IMG/VR virus record: IMGVR_UViG_3300021400_000080
Coordinates: 11,710-75,709 of that record
Direction: 5' to 3' (one strand)
DNA length: 64,000 nucleotides
Source: a virus
Taxonomy: Duplodnaviria; Caudoviricetes
In this document: piece after piece, positions 4,783 through 62,130 of the stretch
How the letters are laid out: every line of letters begins with the position of its first letter
Position numbering within the stretch: the stretch's first letter is position 1
Program-made: the position numbers and the translations under genes
Notes under the pieces: generated by a model
The model's database searches: none
The model's input: only the letters and a program-made list of their open reading frames with translations
Told to the model about the DNA's origin: nothing

Positions 4783-4968
4783 TCACATACAATCAATTGC
4801 CTTGACTACTACTCCTACCCCGCCGCCGGACCATGTGGTGATGGAGTTGCTTCTGCCGTGGGTGACGGGTGATTTGCTCTTACCGGGGAACTCCGTGAAG
4901 ATGGAATCTCCCTCGTATGCCTACATATATCCCGTAGGGTTATCGGCTCTGATCCTTATGCACTGCAT
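4783..4968 (-). CDS. stand-alone methyltransferase TRD module with in-frame TAG
   Basis: MQCIRIRADNPTGYM*AYEGDSIFTEFPGK...SNSITTWSGGGVGVVV; TAG at 4921-4923 lies inside the GYxxAxEGDSI motif. Confidence 0.75.
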
Positions 4969-5116
4969 CCTCTCTCTCCGTCATAACCATCACTGCCTGA
5001 CCCCCTCCGTTAATCGACGTTATCGTGGGGGATATTCCTCTCGGTGAATAGATCCTCTTCGCCATTATGTAACCCGATGGGATGTCCAATTCGGCTGCGA
5101 CGATTATCCGACACAT
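4940..5116 (-). CDS. stand-alone TRD module (58 aa, not in the ORF track)
   Basis: MCRIIVAAELDIPSGYIMAKRIYSPRGISPTITSINGGGQAVMVM... Confidence 0.8.
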   Translation of the reverse strand: MCRIIVAAELDIPSGYIMAKRIYSPRGISPTITSINGGGQAVMVMTEREDAVHKDQSR

Positions 5117-5288
5117 CCCAAACCACTACTCCCAATTCACCGGGTCTTGCCGTTACGGTTCCCGCTACCCCTCCCCCCATAACGGGGGTATGACGATCCC
5201 CTACATAGGTCAGGAACACACAATCCCAAACATGGGCCGTCTTGAACTTTCTCTCTTGGTTCGCCACTATCCTTACCACGTCGGACAT
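5010..5288 (-). CDS. stand-alone TRD module
   Basis: WDCVFLTYVGDRHTPVMGGGVAGTVTARPGELGVVV, similar to the 4783-4968 class. Confidence 0.65.
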   Translation of the reverse strand: MSDVVRIVANQERKFKTAHVWDCVFLTYVGDRHTPVMGGGVAGTVTARPGELGVVVWDVSDNRRSRIGHPIGLHNGEEDLFTERNIPHDNVD

Positions 5289-5458
5289 AATACCGTACCT
5301 CCTCCGTCCTTACTGCGGATCGTACTGCTCTATCCGTCTGCACTGATTATCGCCTCGCCTTTATAATGCGGGTCTGCTGCGATACGGATGATCCCCGATT
5401 GGGGGGATATACGACCCAGGTTGCTCACCTTCCAATGATTGCGGGTATCTTCTTCCAT
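5273..5458 (-). CDS. stand-alone TRD module with in-frame TAG
   Basis: ...IISADG*SSTIRSKDGGGTVL; TAG at 5330-5332 occupies the x of GxSPTI. Confidence 0.65.
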
Positions 5459-5459
5459 G

Positions 5460-5831
5460 TTAAACCTCCACCGCTATCCAACCCGGATGATTGGCGGTTA
5501 TGGTCGGGGACAATCCTCTTTCGTGATATGCTCTGCCGCCCATCTCGAACACGTTGGGAACGGGGATGCTCACCCCGACTGCATCCCATCCTTCGATGCC
5601 CAACAGATCGCGTACCCTCGGCCATATAGACACTTCCGGGGGTGCGTTGTATCTATCCGTCCTGAACCAATGTTCGGCCTCTGTGACAGGAACGGAAAGA
5701 GCATCCGCTACGCTGCGGATCGTCATCCCCTTACGCATACGCGCATCTTTAAGGACACGGGCGAGTTCTATGGAATCGAAATCCGGACGATGGGATACCG
5801 TGAACAACACATCCAATTCGATGAGTCTCAT
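5460..5831 (-). CDS. XRE-like HTH domain fused to a TRD module
   Basis: LKDARMRKGMTIRSVADALSVPVTEAEHWF followed by RAYHERGLSPTITANHPGWIAV. Confidence 0.75.
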   Translation of the reverse strand: MRLIELDVLFTVSHRPDFDSIELARVLKDARMRKGMTIRSVADALSVPVTEAEHWFRTDRYNAPPEVSIWPRVRDLLGIEGWDAVGVSIPVPNVFEMGGRAYHERGLSPTITANHPGWIAVEV

Positions 5832-5979
5832 ATCCTCTCACCAATATCTTCGGCATCACGTTACCTCCCCCGCCCGTAGGGATGGTCGGACAGATACCCT
5901 CATCGGAATAGACCCTCTTGAGACAGTCGTAGCCGTTGAGGGCGGGCAACGTGCATACCTGTTCACATCTCTTCGTCAT
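5749..5979 (-). CDS. stand-alone TRD module
   Basis: KRVYSDEGICPTIPTGGGGNVMPKILV. Confidence 0.8.
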   Translation of the reverse strand: MTKRCEQVCTLPALNGYDCLKRVYSDEGICPTIPTGGGGNVMPKILVRGYETHRIGCVVHGIPSSGFRFHRTRPCP

Positions 5980-6121
5980 GTATCAGCACCTTGATCTGTG
6001 TCGTTCTCCCGATTGCCGTGTGTATGGTCGGGGAACAATAATCGGGATCGTAGACCCTCCTGTGTTGTTCCAGCCAGCCGGGCCAATCGAGGATGGCTAT
6101 GACCTTGCAACGATTCTCCAT
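5963..6121 (-). CDS. stand-alone TRD module (52 aa, not in the ORF track)
   Basis: MENRCKVIAILDWPGWLEQHRRVYDPDYCSPTIHTAIGRTTQIKVLI. Confidence 0.8.
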   Translation of the reverse strand: MENRCKVIAILDWPGWLEQHRRVYDPDYCSPTIHTAIGRTTQIKVLIHDEEM

Positions 6122-6248
6122 ATACTGCCACCAGTTTAGGGTCCTTATAGTCCCTGGATTCTATCGTGGGGGATATTCCTCTCGAATCGTATATCCTCCC
6201 GGCTTTCTCATAGCTGCAATCAAGGGTCCCTATCTGTCTGCATCTCAT
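5976..6248 (-). CDS. stand-alone TRD module with an out-of-frame tail overlapping the next module
   Basis: MRCRQIGTLDCSYEKAGRIYDSRGISPTIESRDYKDPKLVAV. Confidence 0.8.
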   Translation of the reverse strand: MRCRQIGTLDCSYEKAGRIYDSRGISPTIESRDYKDPKLVAVYGESLQGHSHPRLARLAGTTQEGLRSRLLFPDHTHGNRENDTDQGADT

Positions 6249-6420
6249 CCTCTTCCCTCACGAATATCATGGGTTGGTTCGCCTTGGCGAAAGCCAATGT
6301 TATAGTAGGACACAAACCTCTTCCTCCCCATACGACATTACATTTGTCGAATCCGGACGGACGGTAGTTGGGGAGGACGGCTATCTTCACCAATGCCTTA
6401 ATCGGAGTCATCATCTTCAA
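6220..6420 (-). CDS. stand-alone TRD module
   Basis: CNVVWGGRGLCPTITLAFAKANQPMIFV. Confidence 0.75.
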   Translation of the reverse strand: MKMMTPIKALVKIAVLPNYRPSGFDKCNVVWGGRGLCPTITLAFAKANQPMIFVREEDEMQTDRDP

Positions 6421-6859
6421 TCCTCCTTATTATTCCAAGATGTCCGATGTCCGTAGGTACGAGGGTAGGACAGACACAATCCTCATCCAATAGGTGAGTC
6501 ACCTCGAAAGAGAGCTGCCCGAAAGCAATATCATACCCCATCGGTTCGGACTTATCGGCTACGCGATGCCCATTGGACCATTTTCTCGGATGTCTGTAAT
6601 CAAGATAACCTTTTGCCAACAAATCGTCCAACATGGCTTGCAGTCCGTCACAATCATACAATTCCCGGATCATCTCTGTTGTAAGAGGTCTGCCTTCCTC
6701 TCCGGGATAACGTCTCCATCTGGACAATCTGCGACCCCTCAATATTATGTCCAACAATTCCCTCTGTTCCTTAGAGACTTCTCCTTTCAAGCACATATCC
6801 CACGAATGGATGACATTCTCGCCTCCGCGCTTGTCCGTGACAGTCCATCCGAGATTCAT
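6398..6859 (-). CDS. larger stand-alone methyltransferase variable-region/TRD protein (153 aa)
   Basis: ATG at 6859 (ATGA overlap); DKRGGENVIHSWD...LDDLLAKGYL...LSFEVTHLLDEDCVCPTLV recalls C5-MTase variable regions. Confidence 0.75.
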   Translation of the reverse strand: MNLGWTVTDKRGGENVIHSWDMCLKGEVSKEQRELLDIILRGRRLSRWRRYPGEEGRPLTTEMIRELYDCDGLQAMLDDLLAKGYLDYRHPRKWSNGHRVADKSEPMGYDIAFGQLSFEVTHLLDEDCVCPTLVPTDIGHLGIIRRIEDDDSD

Positions 6860-7017
6860 TTTACACACTCTTCCGAGACCCATACAAGTATGAGGGGAGG
6901 GGGACACTTGATCCCCCAATTGGCTAAGACCGTTGGAGCATCCCCGGACGGGTCGAGGACGAGATCGCGGTTCCCGTAGGTTCCTTTACCCGTCAATCCC
7001 CGTCCGATGATCTTCAA
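6856..7017 (-). CDS. stand-alone TRD module (TTG start, 53 aa)
   Basis: GGTGA RBS then TTG; LKIIGRGLTGKGTYGNRDLVLDPSGDAPTVLANWGIKCPPPLILV. Confidence 0.7.
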   Translation of the reverse strand: MKIIGRGLTGKGTYGNRDLVLDPSGDAPTVLANWGIKCPPPLILVWVSEECVK

Positions 7018-7182
7018 TGCGTACTTCACCGACATAGACCAGACCCTCGATCACATTCTTAGCGAAATGTGCCGTGATAGTGGGTGCTAATCCCCCCCCC
7101 CGTAGACACGGCCGTTCTGACCGAAGTGATTATCACCGAACATAAAGACGATTATACTCTTTTTTGCTGCGGTGCGTGCCAT
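6986..7182 (-). pseudogene. TRD module frameshifted at a G10 homopolymer (7092-7101)
   Basis: ...GQNGRVYGGG then, in the shifted frame, GLAPTITAHFAKNVIEGLVYV; G8 or G11 would restore the frame. Confidence 0.7.
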
Positions 7183-8426
7183 TCCAGGTTGCCTTCCGTT
7201 ATGAGGTAATTGCTGGTCTTTCTGCCACCCTCATGACAACTTATGCACAATGCTTTCCGTTCTCCGTGTTGGGGGTTCCAGCAGAATCCTCGCCCATTCT
7301 CCTTCTCCCTCTCCGTGGACCATATCAGACCCTTCAGACGATCCTGACTAAGATAATACTTCTCGTCCACGGGTTCGGGTTCGAGGTAGTCCCTCATACA
7401 CTTGGTAAGCGGTACGGGTTTGGGCAGCTCCGGGGGTTTGCCATTCAGTTTGCTTATCACGAACAACCTCTTACGGTTCTGTGCAACTCCGTAGTCGCAC
7501 GCATTGAGGACCTTCCAGGTGTGCTGGTAGCCGATTGCGGATAACTCGTCCATCAACTCGTCGAAATTCGCCTTGAACTTCTTGGATACCATCATGGGTA
7601 CTTCTTCCATGACGAGGTACTTGGGTCTCTCCTTCTCTTCCGTATTGCGGAGGATACGAGGAACCTCGAAAGCCAGCGAGGATCTTGTTCCGCTGTCCTT
7701 CGCATTACCCGCCAACCGTCCGGCATTGGAGATGTCCTGACAGTTATGAACGATGATACCGTTCACCGTGAACGAATGGCTGTCCTTGACCGTGAGATCG
7801 TAGACATCCGTTTTCTCGAATCCGAAAGATAAATTCACTATTGGGAACCATGCGAATCCGTTTTTAAATGTGGACCCAGGATACAACGACCAATTCCCGG
7901 CGATAGCATCGGGCCGTCCGAGATAATGCGACATGGTAAGATTTTTCGCCTCTATCCATTCGGGTTCGGTAAGTGACCCATCTACTATCTTACAAGCATA
8001 GAATTTATGGTCGAAAGTGGCTCCGATTTCCTCATTACCGGATGCCTTGATACGCATAATCTCCTTATGTCCGGTCTTGCCCGCCCATTCCACGGGATGC
8101 CATTGGCCGTCGTGGGACATCACCATATTCCCGACCTCGACTTCCTCGATGGGGATGTATCCCCTCTCTTTCGTGAGGACCATATCACCCTTGCGGATGC
8201 ACGGGGGTGTCCAGAACAGAACGTCCACTTGATTCTCCCCTCCGATGTCGCGTACCTGGGTGATGTCCCCCAGGTTGCGGGTCTCTCCATGAAGGGTATC
8301 ATACGCGCGTGCGGTCGGAGGGTCGAACTCGCACTGGAATACCATCTGATAGTCGATCCCCAATCTGTCGGCAGCGGAATGGTGCGCTCCGATCCCGGAA
8401 AAGAATCCTCCGATACGCATCATCAC
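7152..8426 (-). CDS. C5-cytosine DNA methyltransferase catalytic subunit (motifs I-VIII) with a mini-intein; lacks motifs IX-X
   Basis: FFSGIGA (I), GDIT (III), TPP-[intein]-CQDIS (IV), MEEV (VI), AQNRKRLF (VIII). Confidence 0.92.
   Translation of the reverse strand: MMMRIGGFFSGIGAHHSAADRLGIDYQMVFQCEFDPPTARAYDTLHGETRNLGDITQVRDIGGENQVDVLFWTPPCIRKGDMVLTKERGYIPIEEVEVGNMVMSHDGQWHPVEWAGKTGHKEIMRIKASGNEEIGATFDHKFYACKIVDGSLTEPEWIEAKNLTMSHYLGRPDAIAGNWSLYPGSTFKNGFAWFPIVNLSFGFEKTDVYDLTVKDSHSFTVNGIIVHNCQDISNAGRLAGNAKDSGTRSSLAFEVPRILRNTEEKERPKYLVMEEVPMMVSKKFKANFDELMDELSAIGYQHTWKVLNACDYGVAQNRKRLFVISKLNGKPPELPKPVPLTKCMRDYLEPEPVDEKYYLSQDRLKGLIWSTEREKENGRGFCWNPQHGERKALCISCHEGGRKTSNYLITEGNLEWHAPQQKRV
7743..8201 (-). 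mobile_element. 153-aa mini-intein with no homing endonuclease
   Basis: Begins CIRKGDMVLT and ends VYDLTVKDSHSFTVNGIIVHN; the +1 residue is the Cys of PPCQ. Confidence 0.92.
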
Positions 8427-22188: not shown

Positions 22189-23685
22189 ATGACACGCACA
22201 TACGCACAACCGCTGCACAATCCGGAGAAGTTCACGCTCAAGGAACATCAGACCTTCGCATCAGAGATGATGGAGAACGTGGAATGTCTCGCCCTTTTCT
22301 ACGAGGCGGGAACAGGAAAGACCATGTGCGTACTCGATTGGGCCTACCGCGCGGTCGAGAGAGGGGATCTGAACTCCCTCCTGGTGATATGTCCCGCCAA
22401 CATCGTGGGGGTATGGACATCAGCGGTCGATAAGATGATCGAGTTCGAGGGATACACCAAGGACGGCATCGCCCGGCTCAAGAGCATCATGACCGTCCGT
22501 TCGTTCCAAAAGACCTACAAGACGGAGACCCGCGAGGTACAGCACAGGAACGGCAGCAAGGGACAGAAAAAGACCCGCGACATCCGTCCGGACATCAACC
22601 GCTATTGGGGAGCCATAGTCGTGGACGAGTCGCACAGTATTGGCGCGCACCAATCCGTCCAGACGAAGGCCGCCCTCGCCCTCGCCATGAAAGCATCCAA
22701 ACGGTTCATCCTCACAGGCACACCCGTGTCGGGAGGAGGAGGCGCGGGAGATTATAAGAAACTCTACGGACAACTGAAATTCCTGGACAACACGGTATGG
22801 GCATCGTGGACGGACTTCTGCAAGAGGTATGTGCTGGCTTTCGACGTGTTCCGCAACCCCGTCCGTTACCGCGAGGCCGAGTTGAAGAAACTGATGGAGG
22901 ACTACGGGATCGTCGCAAGACTGGACATGTGCTACGACATGCCGGATTCGTCCGAGATCGTCATCCCGTGCGAGTTGAAGGAACCCCAGGCATACAAGCG
23001 TATCCGTGAGGGAGATACCGCCACCTACGGATTCGAGATACGCACGGGAGGGGGTCAGTACATCAAGCTGCTGGAACTCGTGTCCGGATTCGTCAAGACC
23101 GACGATAAGGAGGTATCCCCCGGCAAATTCACCAAGGAAGTGCTGAAATTCAAGTGCGAGAAACAGGATGCCCTCAAGACCATCATCACGGGAACGGACG
23201 ATAAGGTCGTGGTATTCTGCAAATTCCGTGAGAGCATAGACGATGCCTACGAGGTATGCTCCAAGATGGGCGAGACGGTCGTGTTCGACGGTCGGTCCAA
23301 CAAGGACACATGGCGCGACTTCCAGTACGGGGATGCCCGCTATCTGATCTGCCAGTACCAGTCGGGAGGGGTCGGACTCGATCTCTACGCGAGTCACACG
23401 ATGGTATTCTACGAACCGGAATGGTCCTCCCTGCTGCTGGAACAGGCGAAGGCGCGTATCCGGAGGAAAGGTCAGACCAAACGCTGCATCTACTACTGGC
23501 TGTCCACGAAGGGGACCATCGAGGAAGATGCGATCCAGTCCGTGAGGAACGGAGTCACCGTCACCACCGAACTCCTTGAGATGTGGGCGAAACGCGAGAT
23601 GAAGAACACGGTCAGCAACGACGATGAAGATGAGGACAACCCCGACACCGACAACCCGGATGAGACGGGAGAATCCGAGATATGA
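22189..23685 (+). CDS. SNF2-like SF2 helicase
   Basis: EAGTGKT, VVDESH, LTGTP, GGVGLDL, QAKARIRRKGQ. Confidence 0.92.
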   Translation: MTRTYAQPLHNPEKFTLKEHQTFASEMMENVECLALFYEAGTGKTMCVLDWAYRAVERGDLNSLLVICPANIVGVWTSAVDKMIEFEGYTKDGIARLKSIMTVRSFQKTYKTETREVQHRNGSKGQKKTRDIRPDINRYWGAIVVDESHSIGAHQSVQTKAALALAMKASKRFILTGTPVSGGGGAGDYKKLYGQLKFLDNTVWASWTDFCKRYVLAFDVFRNPVRYREAELKKLMEDYGIVARLDMCYDMPDSSEIVIPCELKEPQAYKRIREGDTATYGFEIRTGGGQYIKLLELVSGFVKTDDKEVSPGKFTKEVLKFKCEKQDALKTIITGTDDKVVVFCKFRESIDDAYEVCSKMGETVVFDGRSNKDTWRDFQYGDARYLICQYQSGGVGLDLYASHTMVFYEPEWSSLLLEQAKARIRRKGQTKRCIYYWLSTKGTIEEDAIQSVRNGVTVTTELLEMWAKREMKNTVSNDDEDEDNPDTDNPDETGESEI

Positions 23686-24011
23686 CATGGAGAGAACGCA
23701 AGGCAAGGCGCACGATATGGAGATACTGGAACCGCAGGATGTCCCTCATCGGGCGCAGATTGAGGGAGACCACGACATCCGACGAGGATCTTGTGGGGTA
23801 GTGGGATGCGTGTTCCTCCGAGAGCAAGGACAGATTCGTGAAGGACATCAGGTCGCAGTTGGAGAACCAGCACACGGAATACGGGGAGGACTACCGCACG
23901 TTCGCCATCCTGGACGAGTCGTGCGCGGTCCTGTTGGGTATCGAGTACACCATAGCCATGGCGAGGGTGAGGATAGCCAAGAAGAGGGCATCCCGTGTAT
24001 TCCTCAATTGA
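23682..24011 (+). CDS. hypothetical protein with in-frame TAG (109 codons)
   Basis: ATGA-coupled to SNF2; TAG at 23799-23801, then 69 more sense codons to TGA. Confidence 0.65.
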
Positions 24012-26305: not shown

Positions 26306-26595
26306 GTATGGTATTCGTCCGTACATCCACCATCAAGAACAAGGGGAACGGACGGGTAATCTACATCCCCGCAGAATGGGGATTCAAGGCGGGGGATTGG
26401 GTCACTATCCGCATGGCTAAAACCGGTGCGACGTGGCCCTATTCCCTCACGACCCGTATCAAGCCGCAGAAAACGGGATCGGATTACATCAATATCCCCC
26501 CCGAATGGCCGTTGTTCATCGGGGATATGGTCGATGTGAAGATCACCTATGCAGACATCCCCAGGACGGAGATGGCGAAGGATGCCAACCCCTGA
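26302..26595 (+). CDS. tandem AbrB-like swapped-hairpin protein
   Basis: Two repeats: IYIPAEWGFKAGDWVTI and INIPPEWPLFIGDMVDV. Confidence 0.7.
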   Translation: MSMVFVRTSTIKNKGNGRVIYIPAEWGFKAGDWVTIRMAKTGATWPYSLTTRIKPQKTGSDYINIPPEWPLFIGDMVDVKITYADIPRTEMAKDANP

Positions 26596-26911
26596 ACAGC
26601 TCATCAAGAGGGACCTCAAGAGGTTCATCGAGGGCATCGGGGGTTATTGGGTATCCGTCCAAGGGGGACCCGGCTCCAAGCCGGGGGACCCCGACATCAT
26701 CGCATGTATCGACGGAAGGTTCATCGGCATCGAGGCCAAGACCGACACGGGAAGATAGTCGGAGATCCAAAAGCACCGCTGCGAACAGATAATGTCGGCA
26801 GGGGGAGTCTATCTTACTGTGCGGTCGTTGGAGGACCTTAGACAAGGACTCCGCGATGCGGGGATTCCCGGACTCCGAGACGGGCGCGAAACCCGTCCTA
26901 AAACCCCTTAA
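26582..26911 (+). CDS. VRR-NUC nuclease with in-frame TAG
   Basis: GDPDIIACIDGRFIGIEAKTDTGR*SEIQKHRCEQIMSAGGVYLTVRSLEDL; TAG at 26756-26758 splits the domain. Confidence 0.85.
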
Positions 26912-26983: not shown

Positions 26984-27226
26984 ATGGCAGATATGATGGA
27001 CAAAACCATTAGCGCGATACTCACTGCGTTCGTCGCGGTGATATTGATCGCTTCTGCGTTCATCCCTACTGCCATTCAGCAGATCGACACTCTCAACGAC
27101 AAGTACGGGTCGGATGTAGCGGGTTACACCGCACTCATCTCGACGGTCATCATTGTGACGATTGTCGGTATCATAATCGGCATAGTGAAAACCTACTCCT
27201 CCGGAAAAGGCGATGGAGACCGTTGA
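26984..27226 (+). CDS. two-helix hydrophobic capsid-like protein (minor, VP3-like)
   Basis: Hydrophobic helix-Pro-loop-hydrophobic helix, 80 aa. Confidence 0.6.
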   Translation: MADMMDKTISAILTAFVAVILIASAFIPTAIQQIDTLNDKYGSDVAGYTALISTVIIVTIVGIIIGIVKTYSSGKGDGDR

Positions 27227-27253
27227 TCTGACGAATATCGGAAGGTATGAACA

Positions 27254-27496
27254 ATGAACACCGAAGATTTCACCAGCAAAGTTGTCGGCATCGTGATTGC
27301 CGTCATCGTGATCGCGGTCGTTGCCATCCCCATCATCAATGGCATGATCGGAACCGACGGAACCCCTGAGGGATCCACCTACCCCATCCAGTCCGGCTCC
27401 ACCGAAGCTACCATCATCAAGGTCATCCCCATCTTCCTCATCCTGGCCGTCCTGATGGGAGTCGTCTACATGTTCCTCAACGGAAAGAAGAACTGA
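27254..27496 (+). CDS. putative major capsid protein of spindle-shaped-virus type
   Basis: IVIAVIVIAVVAIPIIN...ATIIKVIPIFLILAVL parallels the SSV1 VP1 pattern (LLPVIVSQV...ATLLNLVPLFYIL). Confidence 0.7.
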   Translation: MNTEDFTSKVVGIVIAVIVIAVVAIPIINGMIGTDGTPEGSTYPIQSGSTEATIIKVIPIFLILAVLMGVVYMFLNGKKN

Positions 27497-27503
27497 AGGA
27501 GGC

Positions 27504-27725
27504 ATGAAAATGAACACCGAAGATTTCACCAGCAAGGTTGTCACCGTTGTCATCGCGGTCATCGTGATTGCTGTCGTGGCCATCCCCGTCATCAATCAGG
27601 CGGCCGAGGAAAGCGGAGCCGACAACACCACCAAGACCATCCTGGGAGTCATTCCCATCTTCCTCATCCTGGCCGTCCTCATGACCGTGGTCTACATGTT
27701 CATGAACGGCAAGAAGGACAACTGA
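27504..27725 (+). CDS. putative major capsid protein paralog with a shorter loop
   Basis: Near-identical helices to 27254-27496; different loop. Confidence 0.7.
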   Translation: MKMNTEDFTSKVVTVVIAVIVIAVVAIPVINQAAEESGADNTTKTILGVIPIFLILAVLMTVVYMFMNGKKDN

Positions 27726-27907: not shown

Positions 27908-30418
27908 ATGCAGACAGGAATGAAAGCGGGTCTTGCAATCGTCCTCGCGGTATTCCTCACGGGCATCGTGGGGTTCCTCACCGCAGTCGTGCCGGAGGAC
28001 GAGGAAAGGACCTATTACGACCAAGTGAGCGATCTGACTCCGATTGTGGATGCCAGCGCAATCGACTCGTACACGGAATATAACCCGGTGACGAATGTCA
28101 GCGGATGGGCGAACATAGAAGGTGTGACGATCCCCACATTAACGACTGGCATATCTGCATATCCGTACAGATATACCACTGCCGGAGAGGATAGCGATAT
28201 ATCCAGATCGGTGAAGTTCGCAGCAGTCCTCGATGAATATCCTGATGATCCAGAGAAGTCATATTTCTGGCCCGTTGCTAAAATCTATTCGTTGTATGAA
28301 TCCTCAATCCCTAACAGTATCGAGTACAACGATGTAGAGATAGCAACGTCGGGCAGAGGTAATATAAGCGTAACCAAGGAGTATCAGGAAGGGGAATCGT
28401 TCGCAATCTGCATACTCCACATAGATACGCAAACGGCACAGCCAATCCATCAATTCACATACGAGGTCCACGTTAGTCCAACGTCTCAAAACAATTTCCG
28501 TCAGACCATCTCGACACTGGCGGTATTGGATAACCAGACATCGAGGACGATAACCGTGGGATGGGGGGAGAACTTCGAGTTACAGATCAATGTGTCATTG
28601 GGCGCACATCAGACCATCCGTGTGGACATGTTATCCCACGAAGGATATAGAGGACAGAATATCTTGTTAGATAATGGCGAGATCGTCAATGGTTTTTCAT
28701 CGAATCCGGTATCGCCTAAAGAATATTACGGAGGGGGATTGGATCAGCAGTATGCCCAAGGCGCACCTTCCACACGCACGACCTCTATCTCCAATTATCT
28801 TGTAGTGGACGGCCGCCATCTGACTACCGAATACGGAGCATACACCGTATATCCGCTGTCCATGTATTTCCCGCAGTCGGCATCCATCCAGGACGGGACC
28901 TTCATATCCATAGCCGGACTGAAATATGCGATGCCCACAACGTTCTATCATGGCACACGGACATGGGACGGCGGAGATTCAGGAGATGATGTATCGGGAA
29001 CGTGCCGTACCAACATATCCTCGATAGGGTATGACCATCTTGTTTATGTCAAGGATAACGAGAAGTGGTATCCGGGAGTATTGTCCGAGAACGGGTTGTA
29101 TTATGAGGCCGACATGACTAAACCGGGATATGGTATCGACGAGATATTCATGTTCGCATACGGGTTCAAGCAAGCTGCGACAATCAATGCAACGGAGATC
29201 GAGGTACAGTACGAATATATCGACGGTACTAAATTCGTTACAGTTGCAGACGGTATCACTGCGAAATGGTCCAATTACATGGACAGTACGGTAGGCGGCA
29301 AGACGGTGACGGTTCCCTATAACAACGGAGCAATCGTGCTTTTGACCGAGCCGGGAACAACCATATCGTCCGATAAAGTGTTCTATAAGGACACCGACGG
29401 CAACGTGACCCAAGGTAGTATGACACTTACCGTTCCTACATCCATCCCCTACTCGATGGCCCGTGTGACGTTGGACTTCCAGAACAATACCTACTATGCA
29501 CAGGGTATCGTGTGGGGATCCATCGACGAGGACGAGAGGGGAACGGGCAACTGGACCCTCCGTCCTTACCAGTATCCGATCTCAATCGGACTGAATGGCA
29601 TCCCTGACGTATCCTACGTCCAGGGGATCTCCGTTGAAAAAGCCGGGGGAACCAAGGTATTCGTTCTTGAGACCAGCGTGCAGACCGACCCGATGGGCAG
29701 ATTATGGGGTGATCCCACCATCTATCTCGGATACTTCTTCCCTGACTACTTCACCCACGACAGTGCAACCGGCAACACGGGAGTACCTACGACCGCCATC
29801 CGTATGCTCATCAACGGAGTTGTGAGTTACGGGACCTCGCTGACTATCAACGGACAGTATATGCCCGTGGCAGACGGGAACATCACGTTCACCTACTACA
29901 CCTACGAGACGGAGACCATTCCCTCCACCGACCCGAACGTCCCGCCTACAACCAACACGATCACCGTCACCAACGAGGGCAACATGCCGGTCAAGGGTAT
30001 GGCGATAGATTGGGAGGATGGGCATGTCTATCTTGTGTTCACCGAACAGGGTAAGACCCGTTACGATCTCGGAGAATACGATACGACCGCGGCCAATGTG
30101 GTCATCGCGGGTACGGACACAGGGAAGGACACCGTTGTAACGGACATCATAAGCGGAACGGGGACATGGTATTGGCAGTCCAACCTCTACACGATTAACC
30201 ACGAGATCGAAACGGTCCTCAAACTCGACCTCACACAAGGTTTGTCGGGTTGGGGAATGACGTTACAGGTCTCGATGCTGCTCTTCGCGGGTATGCTCAT
30301 CGTGGGGGTTGCCATCGTCCACTACTACTACCGCGACTCCGACGAACCGATGGGAATCCTTGATTGGGTTATTATAGGATTAGCGATATTGTTATGCTTA
30401 GGAGTTGCAGCAATATGA
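27908..30418 (+). CDS. large virion surface or tip protein (836 aa) with an N-terminal TM and two C-terminal TMs
   Basis: Hydrophobic ends and a Thr/Tyr-rich beta ectodomain; directly follows the capsid genes. Confidence 0.7.
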   Translation: MQTGMKAGLAIVLAVFLTGIVGFLTAVVPEDEERTYYDQVSDLTPIVDASAIDSYTEYNPVTNVSGWANIEGVTIPTLTTGISAYPYRYTTAGEDSDISRSVKFAAVLDEYPDDPEKSYFWPVAKIYSLYESSIPNSIEYNDVEIATSGRGNISVTKEYQEGESFAICILHIDTQTAQPIHQFTYEVHVSPTSQNNFRQTISTLAVLDNQTSRTITVGWGENFELQINVSLGAHQTIRVDMLSHEGYRGQNILLDNGEIVNGFSSNPVSPKEYYGGGLDQQYAQGAPSTRTTSISNYLVVDGRHLTTEYGAYTVYPLSMYFPQSASIQDGTFISIAGLKYAMPTTFYHGTRTWDGGDSGDDVSGTCRTNISSIGYDHLVYVKDNEKWYPGVLSENGLYYEADMTKPGYGIDEIFMFAYGFKQAATINATEIEVQYEYIDGTKFVTVADGITAKWSNYMDSTVGGKTVTVPYNNGAIVLLTEPGTTISSDKVFYKDTDGNVTQGSMTLTVPTSIPYSMARVTLDFQNNTYYAQGIVWGSIDEDERGTGNWTLRPYQYPISIGLNGIPDVSYVQGISVEKAGGTKVFVLETSVQTDPMGRLWGDPTIYLGYFFPDYFTHDSATGNTGVPTTAIRMLINGVVSYGTSLTINGQYMPVADGNITFTYYTYETETIPSTDPNVPPTTNTITVTNEGNMPVKGMAIDWEDGHVYLVFTEQGKTRYDLGEYDTTAANVVIAGTDTGKDTVVTDIISGTGTWYWQSNLYTINHEIETVLKLDLTQGLSGWGMTLQVSMLLFAGMLIVGVAIVHYYYRDSDEPMGILDWVIIGLAILLCLGVAAI

Positions 30419-31954: not shown

Positions 31955-32371
31955 ATGGCAGAATATTGGCTCTATTGGAGCAAGTTCGAGGACAACAATA
32001 AACGTCCCGGACTGCCCGGAGGATTCAGGACCCTAAAGGATGCGCGCGAATGTGCGTATGAGAACGTTGTCACCAACCATCCCATCGAGATCGACGGGTC
32101 GGGCGAGGTCATCAAGAAGATCAAGGGCATCGTCTACTCCGAGAAGTCGGGTCGTTCGGGACCTGTCCGTCAGCGTGTCCTCAAGGACGGTTCCGTGTCC
32201 AAGACCAAGATTTTCGTCAATCCCGTCAATACCGCAGCCAAACTTAAAGCCAAGACTGCATCCAAGACATCCTCCAAGACCAAGACCGCGCCCAAGAAGA
32301 AACGCAAATACGGGGAGATCCTGGGCGATGCAGCGGTCGAGTTCGGGTCCGGACTCCTTTCACATCTCTGA
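31955..32371 (+). CDS. small Tyr/Lys-rich family protein with a Lys/Thr/Ala tail
   Basis: FRTLKDARECA...VLKDGSV. Confidence 0.75.
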   Translation: MAEYWLYWSKFEDNNKRPGLPGGFRTLKDARECAYENVVTNHPIEIDGSGEVIKKIKGIVYSEKSGRSGPVRQRVLKDGSVSKTKIFVNPVNTAAKLKAKTASKTSSKTKTAPKKKRKYGEILGDAAVEFGSGLLSHL

Positions 32372-34039: not shown

Positions 34040-34312
34040 ATGAAAGTGGATCCCGTAGCGATATTGGCCGTCGCCCTCTTCCTCGCGGGGATGGCTGGCA
34101 TAGCGATAGCGCACGCAGAAACCTACGACAACCCTCAAGACGAACCTAACCCCGTTGAACCGGAGATCGTGTCGCAGACGGAGGGATAGACCCTCTACCG
34201 CCTTGACCTTCAGGGCGGTCCTCTCTACTACTACGAATGTGACACCGAGGACGGCACGATCACCAAGATAGTGGCGATAAAGACCGTCACGATGGATATA
34301 GAAGTCGCGTAA
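34040..34312 (+). CDS. small exported protein with in-frame TAG
   Basis: Signal-like N-terminus; TAG at 34187-34189; frame continues to TAA, directly followed by the AACCTCTT motif. Confidence 0.7.
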
Positions 34313-34373: not shown

Positions 34374-37300
34374 ATGGCATTGAACACGGCTTGTTCGTTG
34401 AATGAGCAAGGCATGAGCATAAAATGGGTCGGTATCCTGATTTTAGGTATGGCCGCCCTATTTGGATGTATCGTAGCATTTGAATCGGATGATGCGGATG
34501 CAGCTACCGCCAACCCCAATTATAGGGATGGGGATTGGGGTTATGATCTCGTTACGGAAAACGGTCTTACTACCGCCAAGATCGTATCATACTCCGGAAC
34601 AGGCGGGGGTGCGATAACCATCCCCACTACAATCGGAGGATATACCGTAACCCAGGTCGGTAAAAATGCAGACTACGGTAACAACAATGTTTTTGAACCG
34701 ACATTGGTCGCAACCGATCTCATAATCCCCGATGGGATTTTGAAAATCAATAAGTTCGCATGTCAGAATCTTTCCAATTTCACGGGTACGTTAAGTCTCG
34801 GTAACACAGTAACTACGCTTGGGCTTAGTTGTTTTAGTAATGGTGGTTTTACAGGAACTCTGACACTGCCAAGAAGTATTACCACAATTATTTATTCAAC
34901 AGGTAATTACGCAGCATTTTACAATTGTGCCGGTTTCACGGAATTAGTTATCGAGAACGGTATGTCGGGGGACATCGGACATGATATGTTCCGTAATTGT
35001 ACGGGATTCACGGGTGCATTGGTGATACCGGATAGTGTAACTTATATCGGAATGAGGGCATTTCAGGGTTGTTCCGGATTCACATCCTTGTCGATAGGAT
35101 CCAACGTGACTACGATATATGATAGCGCATTTTACAATTGTACCGGATTCAAGGGCAGTCTCACGATTCCCGACAGTGTTACGACATTCGGAGGATATTA
35201 TTCGAGTACCAACCAGGGTATATTCCAGAATTGCAGAGGATTCGACGGAGTATTGAAAATCGGTAATGGAATCACTAAAATTCCAGCAGCATGTTTCATG
35301 AATTGCAGCGGATTCACCGAATTGATCTTAGGAAATTCCTTGACCGAGATTCAGGATTATTCGGATTATGGTGTATTTAAAGGTTGTACGGGATTGACGG
35401 GTAATCTTACGCTACCGAATACGCTTACCAAGATAGGTAACAGTGCGTTCGATGGATGCAGCGGCCTTACTGGAGCATTAGTGATACCCAACAATGTAAC
35501 ATACATCGGATCAGTGGCTTTCAGGAATTGCAGCGGTTTCACTTCATTGACATTGAGTAACAGTCTTACCGAAATCAAGTCAAGTACGTTCAGCGGATGC
35601 ACATCCATGACGGGTGATCTGATCATCCCTGACAGTGTGACAACCATATACTACCCATTCAGTTCTTCTTCTTCTACGAGCAGTCCTTTTTACAATTGCG
35701 GTTTCGGAGGATCGTTGATTATAGGCGATGGACTTACAGCGGTTGGACAATACATGTTCGACGGATGCGTGTTCAACGATAATCTGGTTATCGGAGATTC
35801 GATTACGGACATCCCATCTGGTGCATTTGCATGTTGTAAGACTGCGACAGGTACGCTTACCATCGGAAGCGGGGTTCAATCAATCGGAAACAGCGTATTC
35901 TATCAGTATAAATTCACAGGGTCTCTCGTATTACCCAACGGTCTGAAAACCATCAGGGATCAGGCATTTGCTCAATGCACCGGATTCACGGGATCTCTTG
36001 TAATCCCGTCCACCGTGACAACGATCGGAGTCCATAGTTCATCCACATCAAATTCATCCGGAGCATTTAGAGGATGTACCGGATTCACGGGTGCATTGGT
36101 GATACCGGATAGCGTGACTTTACTCGGAGATAGGACATTCCAGGGATGCACGGGACTTACCGGAACATTGACGATAGGTACGGGGGTCACGGACATCAAT
36201 CCGTATTGTTTCTATGGTTGTAAATTCACGGGTAATCTGAATATTCCCGGGAACGTGGTTAAGATTCTTGATTATGCGTTCGGCAACAATACCGGATTCA
36301 CATCCCTTACATTACAGGAAGGTCTCGATCTGATTTGGACCCGTGCATTTTCGGAGTGTACCGGGATGACGGGAGTGTTGGCAATACCTGATTCCGTGAC
36401 CACGTTGGGTCCGAAGTCGTATGCGAATGGTTGTTTCTACAATTGTTCCGGATTCACCGGACTGAACCTTGGAGACGGAGTGGAAATCATCGGGGATACC
36501 TGTTTCTGGAATTGTACCGCTATGGCAGGAAGTCTGATCATCCCGGATAGTGTGGAATATATCGGAAAGTGTGCATTTTATGAATGTGCCTTCGATGGTA
36601 CTCTTACTATCGGGAATAATGTATCGGAGATAGGATACGGAGCATTTTACAGTTATAATCACGGATCGTTCATAGGCGATCTGGTAATCCCTGATAGTGT
36701 GACTGTGTTCGGGAATCCCAACAGTCAGGGTTATAATCAAGAGCCGATTTTCTGGTATGCGGGATTCACGGGTTCGCTGACTATCGGGAACGGGATAACC
36801 GTCATTCCCCAAGGCACGTTCTATGGATGCGGATTCACAGGTACGCTTACCATCGGGAATAACGTGACACAGATAGGATCATACGATGGAAATACAGGTG
36901 CTTTTGAGAATGTACCGTTCACAGGCGCATTGGTCATCCCGGATAGTGTGACTAAGATCATGGGACGTTCATTCAAGGGATGCAGCGGATTCACGACATT
37001 ATCCCTCGGTTCGGGATTGACACAGATCACGGGATATGATACATTTAGGGATTGCACCGGATTCACGGGTGCATTGGTGATACCCGATACCGTCCAGTAT
37101 CTCGGACCCAAAAATACATCAGGTACTACCTTTACAGGAGGTCGTGCGTTCATGGGATGTACGGGATTCACATTCCTTACCATCGGTAAGAATGTGGAAC
37201 TCATCGGACCCGGAACGTTCAGTGGATGTACGGGATTCAGAGGGGACCTGGTGATTCCCGACAGTGTTGTAGAGATCGCGTATGGATCATATTATCATCC

Positions 37301-38378
37301 GGATACAACCACTCCCTTCTATAATTGCGGATTCGACGGTTCGCTCATCATCGGAGACGGGTTGTCAGCTGTTTATGACTATATGTTCAACGGCTGTGCG
37401 TTCCAGAACGACCTTGTAATCGGAGATTCCATCGTAGGTATTCCCATAGGTACTTTTGACAGTTGCAGGAATTGTACGGGTACTCTGACCCTGGGAAACG
37501 GTCTGAAATCAATAGAGAGACAAGCGTTCAGCGGTTATAAATTCACAGGGGAATTGATACTTCCCGAAGGAATGACTGAATTGAAATACGGTGCTTTTGA
37601 GAATTGCAAGGGATTCACGGGACCTCTTGTCATTCCGGATAGCATGATAACCTTGGGTAATAACAATTCATCGAATAATGATGGGGTATTCGCAGGTTGT
37701 TCCGGATTCACATCCCTTGTCCTCGGCAGCTCGCTTGAGATGATAGGCCGCAGTACTTTTGCATCATGCACCGGTATGACAGGCGATCTGATAATCCCGG
37801 ATAGCGTGACTGTGATCGGATACAATGCGTTCAACGGTTGTTCATTCACATCATTGGATATAGGCAGCGGATTAACGTCCATTCCCGGACAGGCATTTTA
37901 CGGAAATAAATTCGCAGGAACACTGGTGATCCCGGATAATATACAGACGATAGCAAGCCACGCATTTTATTTCAATAATAATTCAAGAGTGGATACATTG
38001 GTGTTGGGTAGGGGACTCACATCCATCGGAACTTACTCATTCGATACAGCGTATGCAGCACAATCCAGACTGGATAATATCGTGGCATTATCCGACCCCA
38101 CTATCGGCACGGGTGCGTTCAGAGGATCAACAGTATCCCAAATCCTGAATCTGACTGGTTCGGATCTGACCAATGTCGTACCTGGAAACGGAGACATCCC
38201 CTCGACAGCTACGATCCGCACAGCTTTCGAGGATACGGCTATGCTCCAACACACTACCGAGACCATCGTGGTAGATAAAGAAGGGATGGAATACAGTATC
38301 ATGCGGGTGATCCCGATTATAATGGCATTGGCAATACTGATCGGGGTTGCATATTACATCAGGGGGAATAAGATATGA
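34374..38378 (+). CDS. BspA-type leucine-rich-repeat (LRR_5) adhesin anchored by a capsid-like helix 2
   Basis: Many CTGFTG.L.IPDSVT.IG..AF repeats; signal peptide (start probably 34413); C-terminus SIMRVIPIIMALAILIGVAYYIRGNKI. Confidence 0.9.
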   Translation: MALNTACSLNEQGMSIKWVGILILGMAALFGCIVAFESDDADAATANPNYRDGDWGYDLVTENGLTTAKIVSYSGTGGGAITIPTTIGGYTVTQVGKNADYGNNNVFEPTLVATDLIIPDGILKINKFACQNLSNFTGTLSLGNTVTTLGLSCFSNGGFTGTLTLPRSITTIIYSTGNYAAFYNCAGFTELVIENGMSGDIGHDMFRNCTGFTGALVIPDSVTYIGMRAFQGCSGFTSLSIGSNVTTIYDSAFYNCTGFKGSLTIPDSVTTFGGYYSSTNQGIFQNCRGFDGVLKIGNGITKIPAACFMNCSGFTELILGNSLTEIQDYSDYGVFKGCTGLTGNLTLPNTLTKIGNSAFDGCSGLTGALVIPNNVTYIGSVAFRNCSGFTSLTLSNSLTEIKSSTFSGCTSMTGDLIIPDSVTTIYYPFSSSSSTSSPFYNCGFGGSLIIGDGLTAVGQYMFDGCVFNDNLVIGDSITDIPSGAFACCKTATGTLTIGSGVQSIGNSVFYQYKFTGSLVLPNGLKTIRDQAFAQCTGFTGSLVIPSTVTTIGVHSSSTSNSSGAFRGCTGFTGALVIPDSVTLLGDRTFQGCTGLTGTLTIGTGVTDINPYCFYGCKFTGNLNIPGNVVKILDYAFGNNTGFTSLTLQEGLDLIWTRAFSECTGMTGVLAIPDSVTTLGPKSYANGCFYNCSGFTGLNLGDGVEIIGDTCFWNCTAMAGSLIIPDSVEYIGKCAFYECAFDGTLTIGNNVSEIGYGAFYSYNHGSFIGDLVIPDSVTVFGNPNSQGYNQEPIFWYAGFTGSLTIGNGITVIPQGTFYGCGFTGTLTIGNNVTQIGSYDGNTGAFENVPFTGALVIPDSVTKIMGRSFKGCSGFTTLSLGSGLTQITGYDTFRDCTGFTGALVIPDTVQYLGPKNTSGTTFTGGRAFMGCTGFTFLTIGKNVELIGPGTFSGCTGFRGDLVIPDSVVEIAYGSYYHPDTTTPFYNCGFDGSLIIGDGLSAVYDYMFNGCAFQNDLVIGDSIVGIPIGTFDSCRNCTGTLTLGNGLKSIERQAFSGYKFTGELILPEGMTELKYGAFENCKGFTGPLVIPDSMITLGNNNSSNNDGVFAGCSGFTSLVLGSSLEMIGRSTFASCTGMTGDLIIPDSVTVIGYNAFNGCSFTSLDIGSGLTSIPGQAFYGNKFAGTLVIPDNIQTIASHAFYFNNNSRVDTLVLGRGLTSIGTYSFDTAYAAQSRLDNIVALSDPTIGTGAFRGSTVSQILNLTGSDLTNVVPGNGDIPSTATIRTAFEDTAMLQHTTETIVVDKEGMEYSIMRVIPIIMALAILIGVAYYIRGNKI

Positions 38379-45640: not shown

Positions 45641-45968
45641 TTGGGAATTGATGGGATTTCCTTAAATACCCAATGTCCGATTCTATCTATGCCGTCCTTG
45701 AAGGATGGGTCAGGGACGGCAATCCGATAGTAGCGATCGTGTCACTTTTCCTATGCACCTCTCCCATCCGCTTATCACACTTTTATATACCCCGACACGG
45801 ATTCATAATACGGAGGATAGCCGCGGTCCGTCTCCTCCTAACGCAGTCCGAACATCAGACGGCCGCGCGACGAGGGTTCCTTGTAGCCACGATGCCGGGT
45901 CCCGAAGTCGGTCATTTCGCCCGGCATCAACACTTTTCTTTTTATATAGCCATTCTAATTTATGAACT

Positions 45969-46322
45969 ATGCCGCCATCGTCGATTCGCAGATTCAAACC
46001 TTCGACATTCTATTTCTACGACTATCCCCACAACGGAGATATGATATACGTCCTCAAGAGGGAACTTGTGAAATCCAGTCCGGACACTTGGCGCATCACA
46101 TTCGTGGATACGGACAATTATTTTGACGAAGAAGATGGAATGATGCGTATCACAAGCGCAACCGTAAGTCTGGCAGATTATGGGTATTACATTACCGAAG
46201 TGTTGAACAGCCATAGGGTTTCTGCAACCAGAAGTATGTCCAATAAGGACAGTTACTACAAACCTTTCAAAAAGCACGTTCAGTCTTTTTTAAAGCGTTC
46301 TAAAGCGAAAGGCAAGTATTAA
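45969..46322 (+). CDS. hypothetical protein
   Basis: TTTTATATA promoter upstream. Confidence 0.6.
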   Translation: MPPSSIRRFKPSTFYFYDYPHNGDMIYVLKRELVKSSPDTWRITFVDTDNYFDEEDGMMRITSATVSLADYGYYITEVLNSHRVSATRSMSNKDSYYKPFKKHVQSFLKRSKAKGKY

Positions 46323-58343: not shown

Positions 58344-58344
58344 G

Positions 58345-59432: not shown

Positions 59433-59457
59433 ATAAGATAATCTTCATTTTTGTATC

Positions 59458-59787: not shown

Positions 59788-59824
59788 AAAATTAAAAAGG
59801 GGGTCATCCCCCCTATCTTTTTTT

Positions 59825-60334
59825 TTAATTCGGACGGCAGATTATGAATTTGCCTTTCCGGATCGCGTTTGCAAAAGGAGTCATAAACCTAAGATACGAT
59901 AGGGTCGGTTCATTCCTCTGATAACCCTTGATCGTAGGTTTTCCGACTCCTGTCTTATTTCCCTCGTATATGGCGAATATCACGATGGTATCCTTATCAC
60001 ACAATCCCTTGATCTCCTTGACTATGCCCTTGATTACCGATTCTTCCTGTATCACATTAAGGACATTACTGCACACGATGACATCCGGAGGGGTTCTCTT
60101 GAACTTCTGCATAACCGCCTTGTTATGAGATGGGGTACGATTGAATGGATCATAGATACTTACATCCACTCCATATCCTTTCATAAACTCCTTACCGAGA
60201 TCGTATTTCCCACCGCCATAATCCAATACCCTATCGCCCTTGCGGAATAACCGATTATTGGGTTTGGTGAACGTGGTATAGACCGCACACACTTGCACCA
60301 GGGATGTATCCTTGGATTCGTACTTCTGCACCAT
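59825..60334 (-). CDS. class I SAM-dependent methyltransferase-like protein
   Basis: VLDYGGG, SIYDP, CSNVLNVI. Confidence 0.75.
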   Translation of the reverse strand: MVQKYESKDTSLVQVCAVYTTFTKPNNRLFRKGDRVLDYGGGKYDLGKEFMKGYGVDVSIYDPFNRTPSHNKAVMQKFKRTPPDVIVCSNVLNVIQEESVIKGIVKEIKGLCDKDTIVIFAIYEGNKTGVGKPTIKGYQRNEPTLSYLRFMTPFANAIRKGKFIICRPN

Positions 60335-60367
60335 TTTTCTCCTCTACGATATAATGGGATTATAGTA

Positions 60368-60417
60368 TTTTAAGGAACTTTAGGGAATTTTAAGGAATTT
60401 TAAGGAATTTTAAAGAG
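60368..60417. repeat. tandem 10-bp repeat TTTTAAGGAA (about 5 imperfect copies)
   Basis: Directly visible; intergenic. Confidence 0.8.
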
Positions 60418-60922
60418 GATTGGAAATCCTACCGAATATCCAGTATGCGGCCATAAGGGAAAGGCCGTCTATGAGGATGGTATCATACATCGTCATGGGT
60501 ATGCCGAACAAGGTCATAGGGAACTCCCTCATACCGAGGTCGGCTCCCCACAGATGGGATATGACCCATAAGACTCCGATAACTGCCATGAGGACACACG
60601 ACATGTACCATTCCCGGTTGTCTTTATGGTACTGGACCGTAAGAGTATCCATTATCTCCCCGATCTCCGCAGCAGACTTCTTGACCCATCCCTCTTCGGT
60701 TCTGATGAGGGATCCGTCCTCTCCGCACATGTCGTTAAGCACGGTCTCCACGGAAGGATCTATGTCCTCCGGGGTGAATCCATCGAGGTCGGTCATAGCG
60801 ATTATATCGGCCACGACAACGGGTGCATCGAACGGAAGGGTATCTACATACATCCGTGCAACTGGTTGTATGCGCGTGCGTATCTCGTACCTCCGCATCG
60901 GGGGAGTCCAATTCTCCATCAC
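60410..60922 (-). CDS. winged-helix-like N-terminus with two C-terminal TMs
   Basis: Hydrophobic C-terminal segments. Confidence 0.6.
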   Translation of the reverse strand: MMENWTPPMRRYEIRTRIQPVARMYVDTLPFDAPVVVADIIAMTDLDGFTPEDIDPSVETVLNDMCGEDGSLIRTEEGWVKKSAAEIGEIMDTLTVQYHKDNREWYMSCVLMAVIGVLWVISHLWGADLGMREFPMTLFGIPMTMYDTILIDGLSLMAAYWIFGRISNPL

Positions 60923-61194
60923 CGGAACATCACATCCTCTTTATCGTGGATGATACGGAATGTGAGGACGGCCCTCTGATTGTTCTTATTGTCATTCACA
61001 TTCAGGACGTATTCAGGGATGTCCTCGTCCTTGATATGAAGGGACATATAATTGACAACGGCATCCAGGACCTCCCTTGTCACATTGACCCTACGATCCT
61101 TGTGAAAATGGTCCTTGCCCTTCTTGACCTCTCCGAGATATATCTCTCCGTCATCCAGGCACATGATGTCCAGTCCTACGTCCTTCTTGCTCAT
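60919..61194 (-). CDS. hypothetical protein
   Basis: ATGA-coupled. Confidence 0.6.
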   Translation of the reverse strand: MSKKDVGLDIMCLDDGEIYLGEVKKGKDHFHKDRRVNVTREVLDAVVNYMSLHIKDEDIPEYVLNVNDNKNNQRAVLTFRIIHDKEDVMFR

Positions 61195-61253
61195 CGTATC
61201 ACAATCACGGTTCTATTTTATTGGCTTTTGCCCATTCTTCCCACGAATGGTCA

Positions 61254-61433
61254 TCAGTCATCAAAACACCGTTCATAGCATGTTTCCATCTCATCGAACT
61301 GCCCGTCCACACCCAATCCGGTAGTATCGGATGCAGTGTCCATCAGCGCACCCAACATGTCCTCGTAGTCCGTTATATCCGCATTGGACGGGTATTTGAC
61401 GTAGATCGTGAACTTCACGAATTTGTCAGGCAT
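61254..61433 (-). CDS. acidic hypothetical protein
   Basis: GGAGT RBS; MPDKFVKF. Confidence 0.55.
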   Translation of the reverse strand: MPDKFVKFTIYVKYPSNADITDYEDMLGALMDTASDTTGLGVDGQFDEMETCYERCFDD

Positions 61434-61669
61434 CACTCCTCCCTCCAACGTGCCATGACTATCCTATCGGTCTCTCCGCGCACTTCCCTGCCGCAGCCCG
61501 GACATGTGATGACCCACTCCGCTTTTGCGAAATCGTAGTAGTAGTCCGGCTCGTCCTCACAGTCGCATTGACCGCACGGAGGAACGTTCTCGACATTCCC
61601 GATAACGTCCTCTTCCAGATCGTGTACGGCATCCTCCTTGAATCTCTCGATGTCGTAGGGGTCGTTCAT
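61433..61669 (-). CDS. Lar-like zinc-ribbon protein
   Basis: PPCGQC...ITCPGCG...MARW. Confidence 0.55.
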   Translation of the reverse strand: MNDPYDIERFKEDAVHDLEEDVIGNVENVPPCGQCDCEDEPDYYYDFAKAEWVITCPGCGREVRGETDRIVMARWREE

Positions 61670-61941
61670 TCGATCACCTTGATACCCATCACGCAGTACC
61701 CTTCGGGGATACCGTCGGGGAACATGTCGTGGGTGATTATGTATGTGACCGCTACTCTCACATCCCTTCCCGTGAACCTCTCCGCATCCAGATCGGTCTC
61801 CAGGTCGGGGTTGTATTCGCGTAGGCGCAGCGTATCGCCCACTTTATAGTCACGGTCGCTTTTGCGTATCTCGAACGTCTTGATGCCATTCTTGACGGCA
61901 TCGTAGTATTGTGGTACTATCTTCAATACATGCAGTGTCAT
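61666..61941 (-). CDS. ASCH-superfamily (DUF3850-like) protein
   Basis: HVLKIVPQYYDAVKNGIKTFEIRKSDRDYKVGDTLRLREY. Confidence 0.85.
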   Translation of the reverse strand: MTLHVLKIVPQYYDAVKNGIKTFEIRKSDRDYKVGDTLRLREYNPDLETDLDAERFTGRDVRVAVTYIITHDMFPDGIPEGYCVMGIKVIE

Positions 61942-61965
61942 TTCATCTCTCTCCTGTCGTTTATC

Positions 61966-62130
61966 TCATTCCATGAATCCTTCCCAAATACAGAACTATG
62001 CTACGGCATCACATTTGGGACAAGTCAGATAGGTCACGCTGCCCATCCCGGAATCTTCTCCGCACGCTTCATCATAATTGAAATCCGATCTCCAAGTCAT
62101 CTCTGCTCCGCAGAACCAACAAGTTGTCAT
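61966..62130 (-). CDS. zinc-ribbon protein with in-frame TAG
   Basis: MTTCWFCGAEMTWRSDF...YLTCPKCDAVA*FCIWE; TAG at 61996-61998. Confidence 0.6.

Follow-up and report, generated by a model that had tools for sequence, protein, structure and literature searches.

Bacteriophages that have recoded a stop codon carry suppressor tRNAs, use the recoded codon frequently and mainly in late genes, and often follow a code unlike that of their host; such phages, with TAG as Gln (code 15) or TGA as Trp (code 4), are reportedly the subject of work by Ivanova in 2014 and Borges in 2022. In archaea, the code in which TAG means pyrrolysine (Pyl) is already published on the host side: Candidatus (Ca.) M. alvus shows 1.6% TAG stops and 17% TAA, with 16 extra predicted Pyl proteins (Borrel et al. 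2014, PMC4153887), and proteomics of M. alvi has found TAG read as Pyl genome-wide, as "Genetic Code 34" (Kivenson et al., bioRxiv 10.1101/2024.09.30.615893). Methanosarcina acetivorans, in which 4-5% of the genes end in TAG, reads UAG both as a stop and as Pyl (PMC12626013). Hosts of the M. luminyensis type are rich in TAG (11%). Viruses are mentioned neither in the key host-code papers nor in the other literature searched, a scope that did not take in the 2023 compendium of methanogen viruses. Here we analyse a 64,000-nt stretch of viral DNA (the window; bases 11710-75709 of the 75,709-bp IMG/VR record IMGVR_UViG_3300021400_000080, most of a complete genome) in which a few TAG codons lie inside genes. 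Three of them are proven by sequence comparison to be in-frame sense positions, and we believe, with a probability of about 0.78, that the tRNA-Pyl of the host reads the viral TAGs as sense.

A simple self-trained gene caller run under the standard code predicted 152 genes, whose stops were TGA (119), TAA (26) and TAG (6), and all six TAG-ended open reading frames (ORFs) were short (42-76 aa). An earlier note on this DNA (the original prediction) was therefore right that the genes avoid TAG as a terminator. Its statement that TAG behaves as a sense codon throughout was too strong, as TAG is not an ordinary sense codon: in 23,200 codons there are at most 13 in-frame TAGs (224 and 83 in the other two frames), never in large genes, and none at all in the large genes of the virion module, while each of the neighbour codons of TAG occurs 256-996 times (CAG, 362). 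TAG is a very rare sense codon in this genome. In this rarity, in its apparent near absence as a terminator, in the variability of its positions between lineages and in the lack of large out-of-frame overlaps, the virus resembles the Genetic Code 34 archaea, and its stop profile (TGA ~80%, TAA ~17%, TAG <5%) is like that of Ca. M. alvus. It differs from M. alvus in the share of genes with TAG, ~1% there versus at least 3 and up to ~9 of 154 here.

Re-prediction of the genes with TAG as sense, a check that the original prediction had proposed, raised the coding density from 90.4% to 92.0% and the summed coding score likewise, and both values fell when TAA or TGA was made sense. If TAG is taken as a stop, the two ORFs that end on it at 26758 and 34189 are followed by gaps of 225 and 223 nt, compared with a median gap of 9 nt. 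The read-through extensions overlap the next gene out of frame by 16 nt at most. No PYLIS-like structure was apparent after the TAGs (z-scores of -0.7, -1.4, -2.1 and -0.1, with no common fold), and no sequence context common to them was seen. ARAGORN and the Rfam tRNA model detected no tRNA gene in the window, where the absence of a suppressor tRNA had been noted before, or in the whole 75.7-kb genome, from which pylT, pylS and pylBCD are also absent. Thus, in contrast to the Genetic Code 34 archaea, the carrier is a virus without its own pylT, pylS and pylBCD. It is like the recoded phages in that some genes need a non-standard meaning of a stop codon and are fragmented by standard callers; it is unlike them in having no tRNA and just a handful of TAGs in small genes, and in that it appears to use the code of its host rather than to oppose it.

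Six TAGs, at 23799, 26756, 34187, 4921, 5330 and 61996, had been proposed to lie in frame with coding continuation, and all six are present at these coordinates and in the frames proposed. The continuation itself is proven for the first three and has homology support at 4921; at 5330 the indication is a motif, and at 61996 the tail is just 9 codons long. The three proven sites belong to the following genes:

23682..24011, plus strand: ORF after the SNF2 helicase gene, 109 codons; TAG at 23799-23801, codon 40

26582..26911, plus strand: stand-alone VRR-NUC/Hjc-type PD-(D/E)xK nuclease, 109 codons; TAG at 26756-26758, codon 59

34040..34312, plus strand: secreted small protein with a signal peptide and a conserved C-terminal domain, 90 codons; TAG at 34187-34189, codon 50

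The relatives compared were G001 (83-90% DNA identity, collinear), L154-L161 from different sequencing projects, a fragment in a metagenome-assembled genome (MAG; L148) and contigs L162-L164. Since close relatives align in every frame, read-through screens were noisy, and hits to distant homologs alone were retained. The TAG at 23799 was found in 11 of 11 related genomes, with 2, 1 and 9 variable sites at the first, second and third codon positions upstream and 1, 4 and 16 downstream. At 26756 it was present in all 10 (1, 1 and 5 variable sites upstream; 4, 5 and 14 downstream), and at 34187 in all 5 (14, 8 and 22 upstream; 4, 1 and 15 downstream). The excess of third-position changes downstream of the TAG had binomial P values of 7e-5, 6e-3 and 2e-4, respectively. 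This pattern of variation shows purifying selection on the reading frame both upstream and downstream of each of the three TAGs. Moreover, because the three are kept in independent assemblies, they are neither assembly errors nor fresh nonsense mutations. As in the Genetic Code 34 archaea, conserved genes contain internal TAGs that are flanked by homologous sequence before and after (here at 23799, 26756, 34187 and 4921). The start codon of the ORF at 23682 shares an ATGA with the stop codon of the SNF2 helicase gene, and public gene calls divide this ORF into two pieces of 39 and 70 aa. Conservation of the secreted protein is highest downstream of its TAG; standard gene calling cuts all six database clusters of this protein at 49 aa. 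A distant homolog of this protein (L173) has a TAG at a different position, and homology again extends past it.

For the nuclease, twelve full-length homologs align over the whole read-through product, and the Pfam Hjc match crosses the TAG with 23.5 bits (cut-off, 21.1). In the alignment, the TAG is flanked by invariant or near-invariant residues, with D38, E51 and K53 before it and S60, Q63, G74, G75 and R81 after it; the first three are invariant, so that the D ... E-x-K catalytic motif is present, and the loop that follows the E-x-K strand contains the TAG. The TAG column contains Q in 8 homologs, L in 3 and P in 1. No start codon occurs between the TAG and residue 71. The AlphaFold2 model of the read-through product (mean pLDDT 85, pTM 0.76) places a helix (61-72), a strand (76-80) and another helix (83-92) after the TAG, that is, ~40% of the nuclease fold, which the 58-aa N-terminal piece called in public catalogues would lack. 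The best PDB matches of the model were the stand-alone VRR-NUC structures 4qbn, 4qbo and 4qbl, followed by archaeal Hjc resolvases, with a TM of 0.78 on the target for 4qbn_A. Because VRR-NUC structures rank first, the VRR-NUC label given to the gene in the original prediction can be kept, and the read-through product is predicted from the model to fold as a complete VRR-NUC-like nuclease with an alpha-beta-beta-beta-alpha-beta fold.

Outside these three sites, TAG positions turn over among the relatives, whose stop pattern is like that of this virus. G001 has three private in-frame TAGs at positions that are Tyr, Glu and Leu in the present genome, the one at Leu being in a serine recombinase. 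Among more distant relatives, a 263-aa protein has a TAG in L001 and L039 and Ser in a homolog, and a DUF5906/D5-type primase carries an in-frame TAG in L149:9068 (G169:C2). The contig G169:C2 is that of a tailed virus with a terminase, it belongs to a MAG of the same order, and it has the replication module in common with our virus.

A 45-kb contig found through the nuclease search led to MAG G002, which also contains small contigs 87-97% identical to the virus. These viral fragments take in the genes of the 836-aa virion protein and of the three small capsid-like proteins, as well as the end of the SNF2 gene, and TAG 23799 is among the sites included. On contig C276, the same MAG carries a contiguous tRNA-Pyl(CUA)-pylS-pylB-pylC-pylD cassette whose PylS, PylB, PylC and PylD all exceed the curated NCBIfam cut-offs. 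The PylS, 274 aa long, lacks the N-terminal domain, and this short form is present in 160 of the 261 genomes of the GTDB order of G002. McrA was present; Mch was looked for in G002 and not found. In a 109-kb sample, the MAG had 52.7% GC (virus, 50.8%), and its stops were TGA in 89 cases, TAA in 13 and TAG in 3. An unrelated published virus assigned to Methanomassiliicoccales (BK063680) has a comparable set of annotated stops (TGA 62, TAA 6, TAG 1). The viral fragments, the pyl cassette, McrA and the stop usage support the original guess of a Methanomassiliicoccales host that decodes Pyl, and the proposed search for pyl genes in the host was positive in the linked MAG. We infer that the host is a Methanomassiliicoccales-type, pyrrolysine-decoding, host-associated (gut-type) methanogen, with G002 as its probable representative. 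The MAG is titled "uncultured Methanomicrobiales archaeon", a label that looks wrong, as its gene content fits Methanomassiliicoccales.

These results suggest the following course of events. The host would make pyrrolysine and have an amber-reading tRNA-Pyl, leaving UAG a poor or unused terminator in the cell. The virus would have shed TAG as a terminator because UAG is unreliable there, ending its genes on TGA (~78%) or TAA (~17%), and would tolerate and stably inherit a few in-frame TAGs. Reading of these by host Pyl-tRNA-Pyl would give full-length forms of the small replication-module protein, the VRR-NUC/Hjc-type nuclease and the secreted small protein, and would probably also complete one or two methyltransferase specificity modules. 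The decoding machinery would be borrowed from the host, the virus bringing no tRNA or pyl gene, and read-through would presumably be efficient. We consider it doubtful that the conserved TAGs are themselves under selection, either as a lock to Pyl-active cells (a host-range or superinfection barrier) or as a sensor through which the secreted protein, the nuclease and the replication-module protein would depend on the methylamine or Pyl status of the host.

A different possibility is that UAG is ambiguous here, as in Methanosarcina, so that the ratio of truncated to full-length product, set by the Pyl supply, tunes or gates expression; the TAGs would then be kept as a Pyl-dependent switch instead of being plainly decoded as sense. 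In M. acetivorans, UAG is read both ways with an efficiency that depends on Pyl supply and demand (PMC12626013); the parallel extends to a host tRNA-Pyl that allows long forms and to a low TAG frequency as the genomic adaptation, but UAG still terminates there at a measurable rate. The restriction of the viral TAGs to small accessory and replication genes, with none in the large virion genes, would agree with ambiguity, and so would the fact that three of them stay TAG in every sampled relative without drifting to sense codons. However, TAG accounts for only 3 of 105 stops in the linked MAG, a share that marks constitutive decoding in genomes of the M. alvus type, and the turnover of TAG positions between close relatives at variable residues is what near-neutral drift predicts. 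Neither a downstream structure nor a sequence context is common to the sites, and the 58-aa N-terminal piece of the nuclease is without ~40% of the fold. Taken together, we find an ambiguous UAG unlikely. Less probable still is the insertion of a standard amino acid at TAG, be it Gln, as in the code-15 phages, or one supplied by near-cognate read-through, with pyrrolysine uninvolved. Phages with TAG as Gln are known from gut metagenomes, and Gln occupies the TAG column in 8 of the 12 nearest full-length nuclease homologs; the original prediction had named a consistent Gln together with an amber tRNA-Gln as the observation that would favour code 15, and Gln was found at the nuclease TAG but the tRNA was not. 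The complete genome has no tRNA at all, TAG is used at most 13 times versus 362 for CAG in 23,200 codons and never in large virion genes, the TAG sites other than that of the nuclease (Q, L or P) have Val, Glu, Tyr, Leu, Gly, Ile, Cys and Ser opposite them and not Gln, and the linked host has a dedicated tRNA-Pyl(CUA). Code 15 was rejected because of the missing suppressor tRNA, the rarity of TAG and the variety of aligned residues.

That the TAGs could be true stops, in decaying pseudogenes that have been split or in misassembled sequence, with TAG just the rarest stop, is a view to which we give almost no credence. In its favour, many genomes use TAG least among the three stops, the methyltransferase TRD region looks broken by frameshifts, and one additional candidate (61213) is out of frame in G001. 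Against this, an identical TAG recurs in up to 11 independent assemblies, selection on the reading frame persists past it, the nuclease offers no start codon before residue 71, and the secreted protein is most conserved in the domain that follows its TAG.

Decoding of the viral TAGs by host tRNA-Pyl is thus the reading we prefer, and several observations weigh against it. Two TAG-ended ORFs have tails of 6 and 9 codons (at -9797, outside the window, and at 61996), and TAG might still terminate at these. At the end of the SNF2 helicase gene, the same residue position holds TAG in L120 (3802-5121) and TAA in L123 (2452-3771), so that in part of the group TAG may still be a terminator, or else lead into a tail of 31 codons. 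Truncated viral products may also arise, because M. acetivorans reads UAG both ways. The nearest nuclease homologs have Gln at the TAG, and the simplest of nonsense changes leads from CAG to TAG; pyrrolysine as the inserted residue is in turn what we infer from the host. The host link itself depends on the binning of small metagenomic contigs and on codon habits. Assignment by CRISPR spacers, another of the checks proposed, gave no spacer match in same-order genomes: there were matches of 25-43 nt, and of the four places checked none was in a repeat array; nor did a second 20-kb viral segment have a spacer match. No integration site was found, and the other same-order contigs that have the replication module in common are viral, not chromosomal. 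Two of these, G169:C2 and G172:C1, had been considered as chromosomal integrations and were rejected, the contigs being themselves viral (terminase).

Confirmation of pyrrolysine at these sites would extend the archaeal TAG=Pyl code, and with it the 22nd amino acid, into the virosphere, and we found no paper reporting this. The combination of TAG-free stops with in-frame TAG could serve as a sequence-only host marker for uncultivated archaeal viruses. Meanwhile, public protein catalogues systematically shorten these viral proteins, giving the secreted protein at 49 aa and the nuclease at 58 aa. Being short and well conserved, the genes described here are natural test cases for the efficiency of UAG reading in Methanomassiliicoccales and for Pyl limitation of the virus.

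The remaining TAGs of the original six are in the following features:

4783..4968, minus strand: TRD-like mini-ORF of the C5 methyltransferase region, 61 codons; TAG (CTA on the plus strand) at 4921-4923, codon 16

5273..5458, minus strand: TRD-like mini-ORF, 61 codons; TAG (CTA) at 5330-5332, codon 43

61966..62130, minus strand: zinc-ribbon mini-protein; candidate TAG (CTA) at 61996-61998 after codon 44, with a TGA 9 codons on

The ORF with TAG 4921 is similar to the variable region of a C5 methyltransferase that is intact, at 603 aa, in L123 (45% identity over 49 aa, E 1e-5) and has Val opposite the TAG; the ORF itself has no start codon downstream of the TAG; this homology supports 4921 as an in-frame sense TAG. 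TAG 5330 falls inside the G-x-[SC]-P-T-I core motif common to the sibling modules, which reads G-O-S-S-T-I here; the motif hints at a sense TAG. Both lie in a ~2.4-kb region with short modules in all three frames, which the relatives do not cover. On the minus strand, about 10 short TRD-like modules (R-V/I-Y ... G-x-[SC]-P-T-I) occupy 4700-7150 in all three frames, flanked by the N-terminal part (7152-8423) and the C-terminal part (4144-4725) of a C5 methyltransferase. Near 7090-7130, "RVYGGG" and "GGGLAPTIT" are in different frames and would join over a G run, which suggests a frameshift, slippage or decay; as the modules are short and frame-shifted, the TRD region may be decaying. The N-terminal part of the methyltransferase (7152-8423, minus strand) carries an intein (Pfam Intein_splicing, Hint_2), as does the methyltransferase of a relative (L172:4857-6695). 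The zinc-ribbon gene with TAG 61996 is absent from the close relative G001. Two further candidates were discarded: 61213, whose TAG and ATG are put out of frame with each other by an indel in G001, and an ORF with three TAGs at 45775-45978, which was treated as a non-gene (low coding score, TGG at one site in G001). Outside the window, candidate TAG sites occur at -9797, -7528 and -4236, and the relatives cover none of the three.

The record is rated complete in IMG/VR and has a 107-bp direct terminal repeat at the genome ends (1-107 and 75603-75709). The 46-kb relative G001 aligns over both ends, with 4088-5303 reading directly through the junction, and because this alignment bridges the ends, the genome is taken to be circular or circularly permuted; G001 is nevertheless classed as a provirus in IMG/VR. 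The replication module includes genes for a primase, the SNF2 helicase, a YqaJ exonuclease and the small nuclease, and other genes encode the intein-bearing C5 methyltransferase and a BspA-type leucine-rich-repeat (LRR) protein. A block of large proteins has no Pfam or PHROG family match. Terminase, portal and HK97 capsid families were matched by 0 of 10 large proteins (in Pfam; a slightly different ten were compared with PHROGs), and searches of the virion module gave no Pfam or PHROG family and no phage-collection match, nor any IMG/VR relative with the 527-aa protein. The virus is uncultivated and apparently non-tailed. Its 836-aa virion protein (27908-30418) has 61 representatives among 1.8 billion clustered proteins, all metagenomic, and is always preceded by three small hydrophobic proteins of 70-80 aa (26984-27725). 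A 25-nt stretch at 32108-32132, inside the gene at 31955-32371, is 100% identical in G133, G137, G138, G171 and G204, which belong to the putative host order; possible explanations are an attachment core, a host motif under conservation, or chance. Finally, the gene of the 1321-aa BspA-type LRR protein (34413-38378) has 68% DNA similarity over ~190 nt to G050:C1, a megabase chromosome contig of a same-order genome, and this similarity hints at gene exchange with the host.

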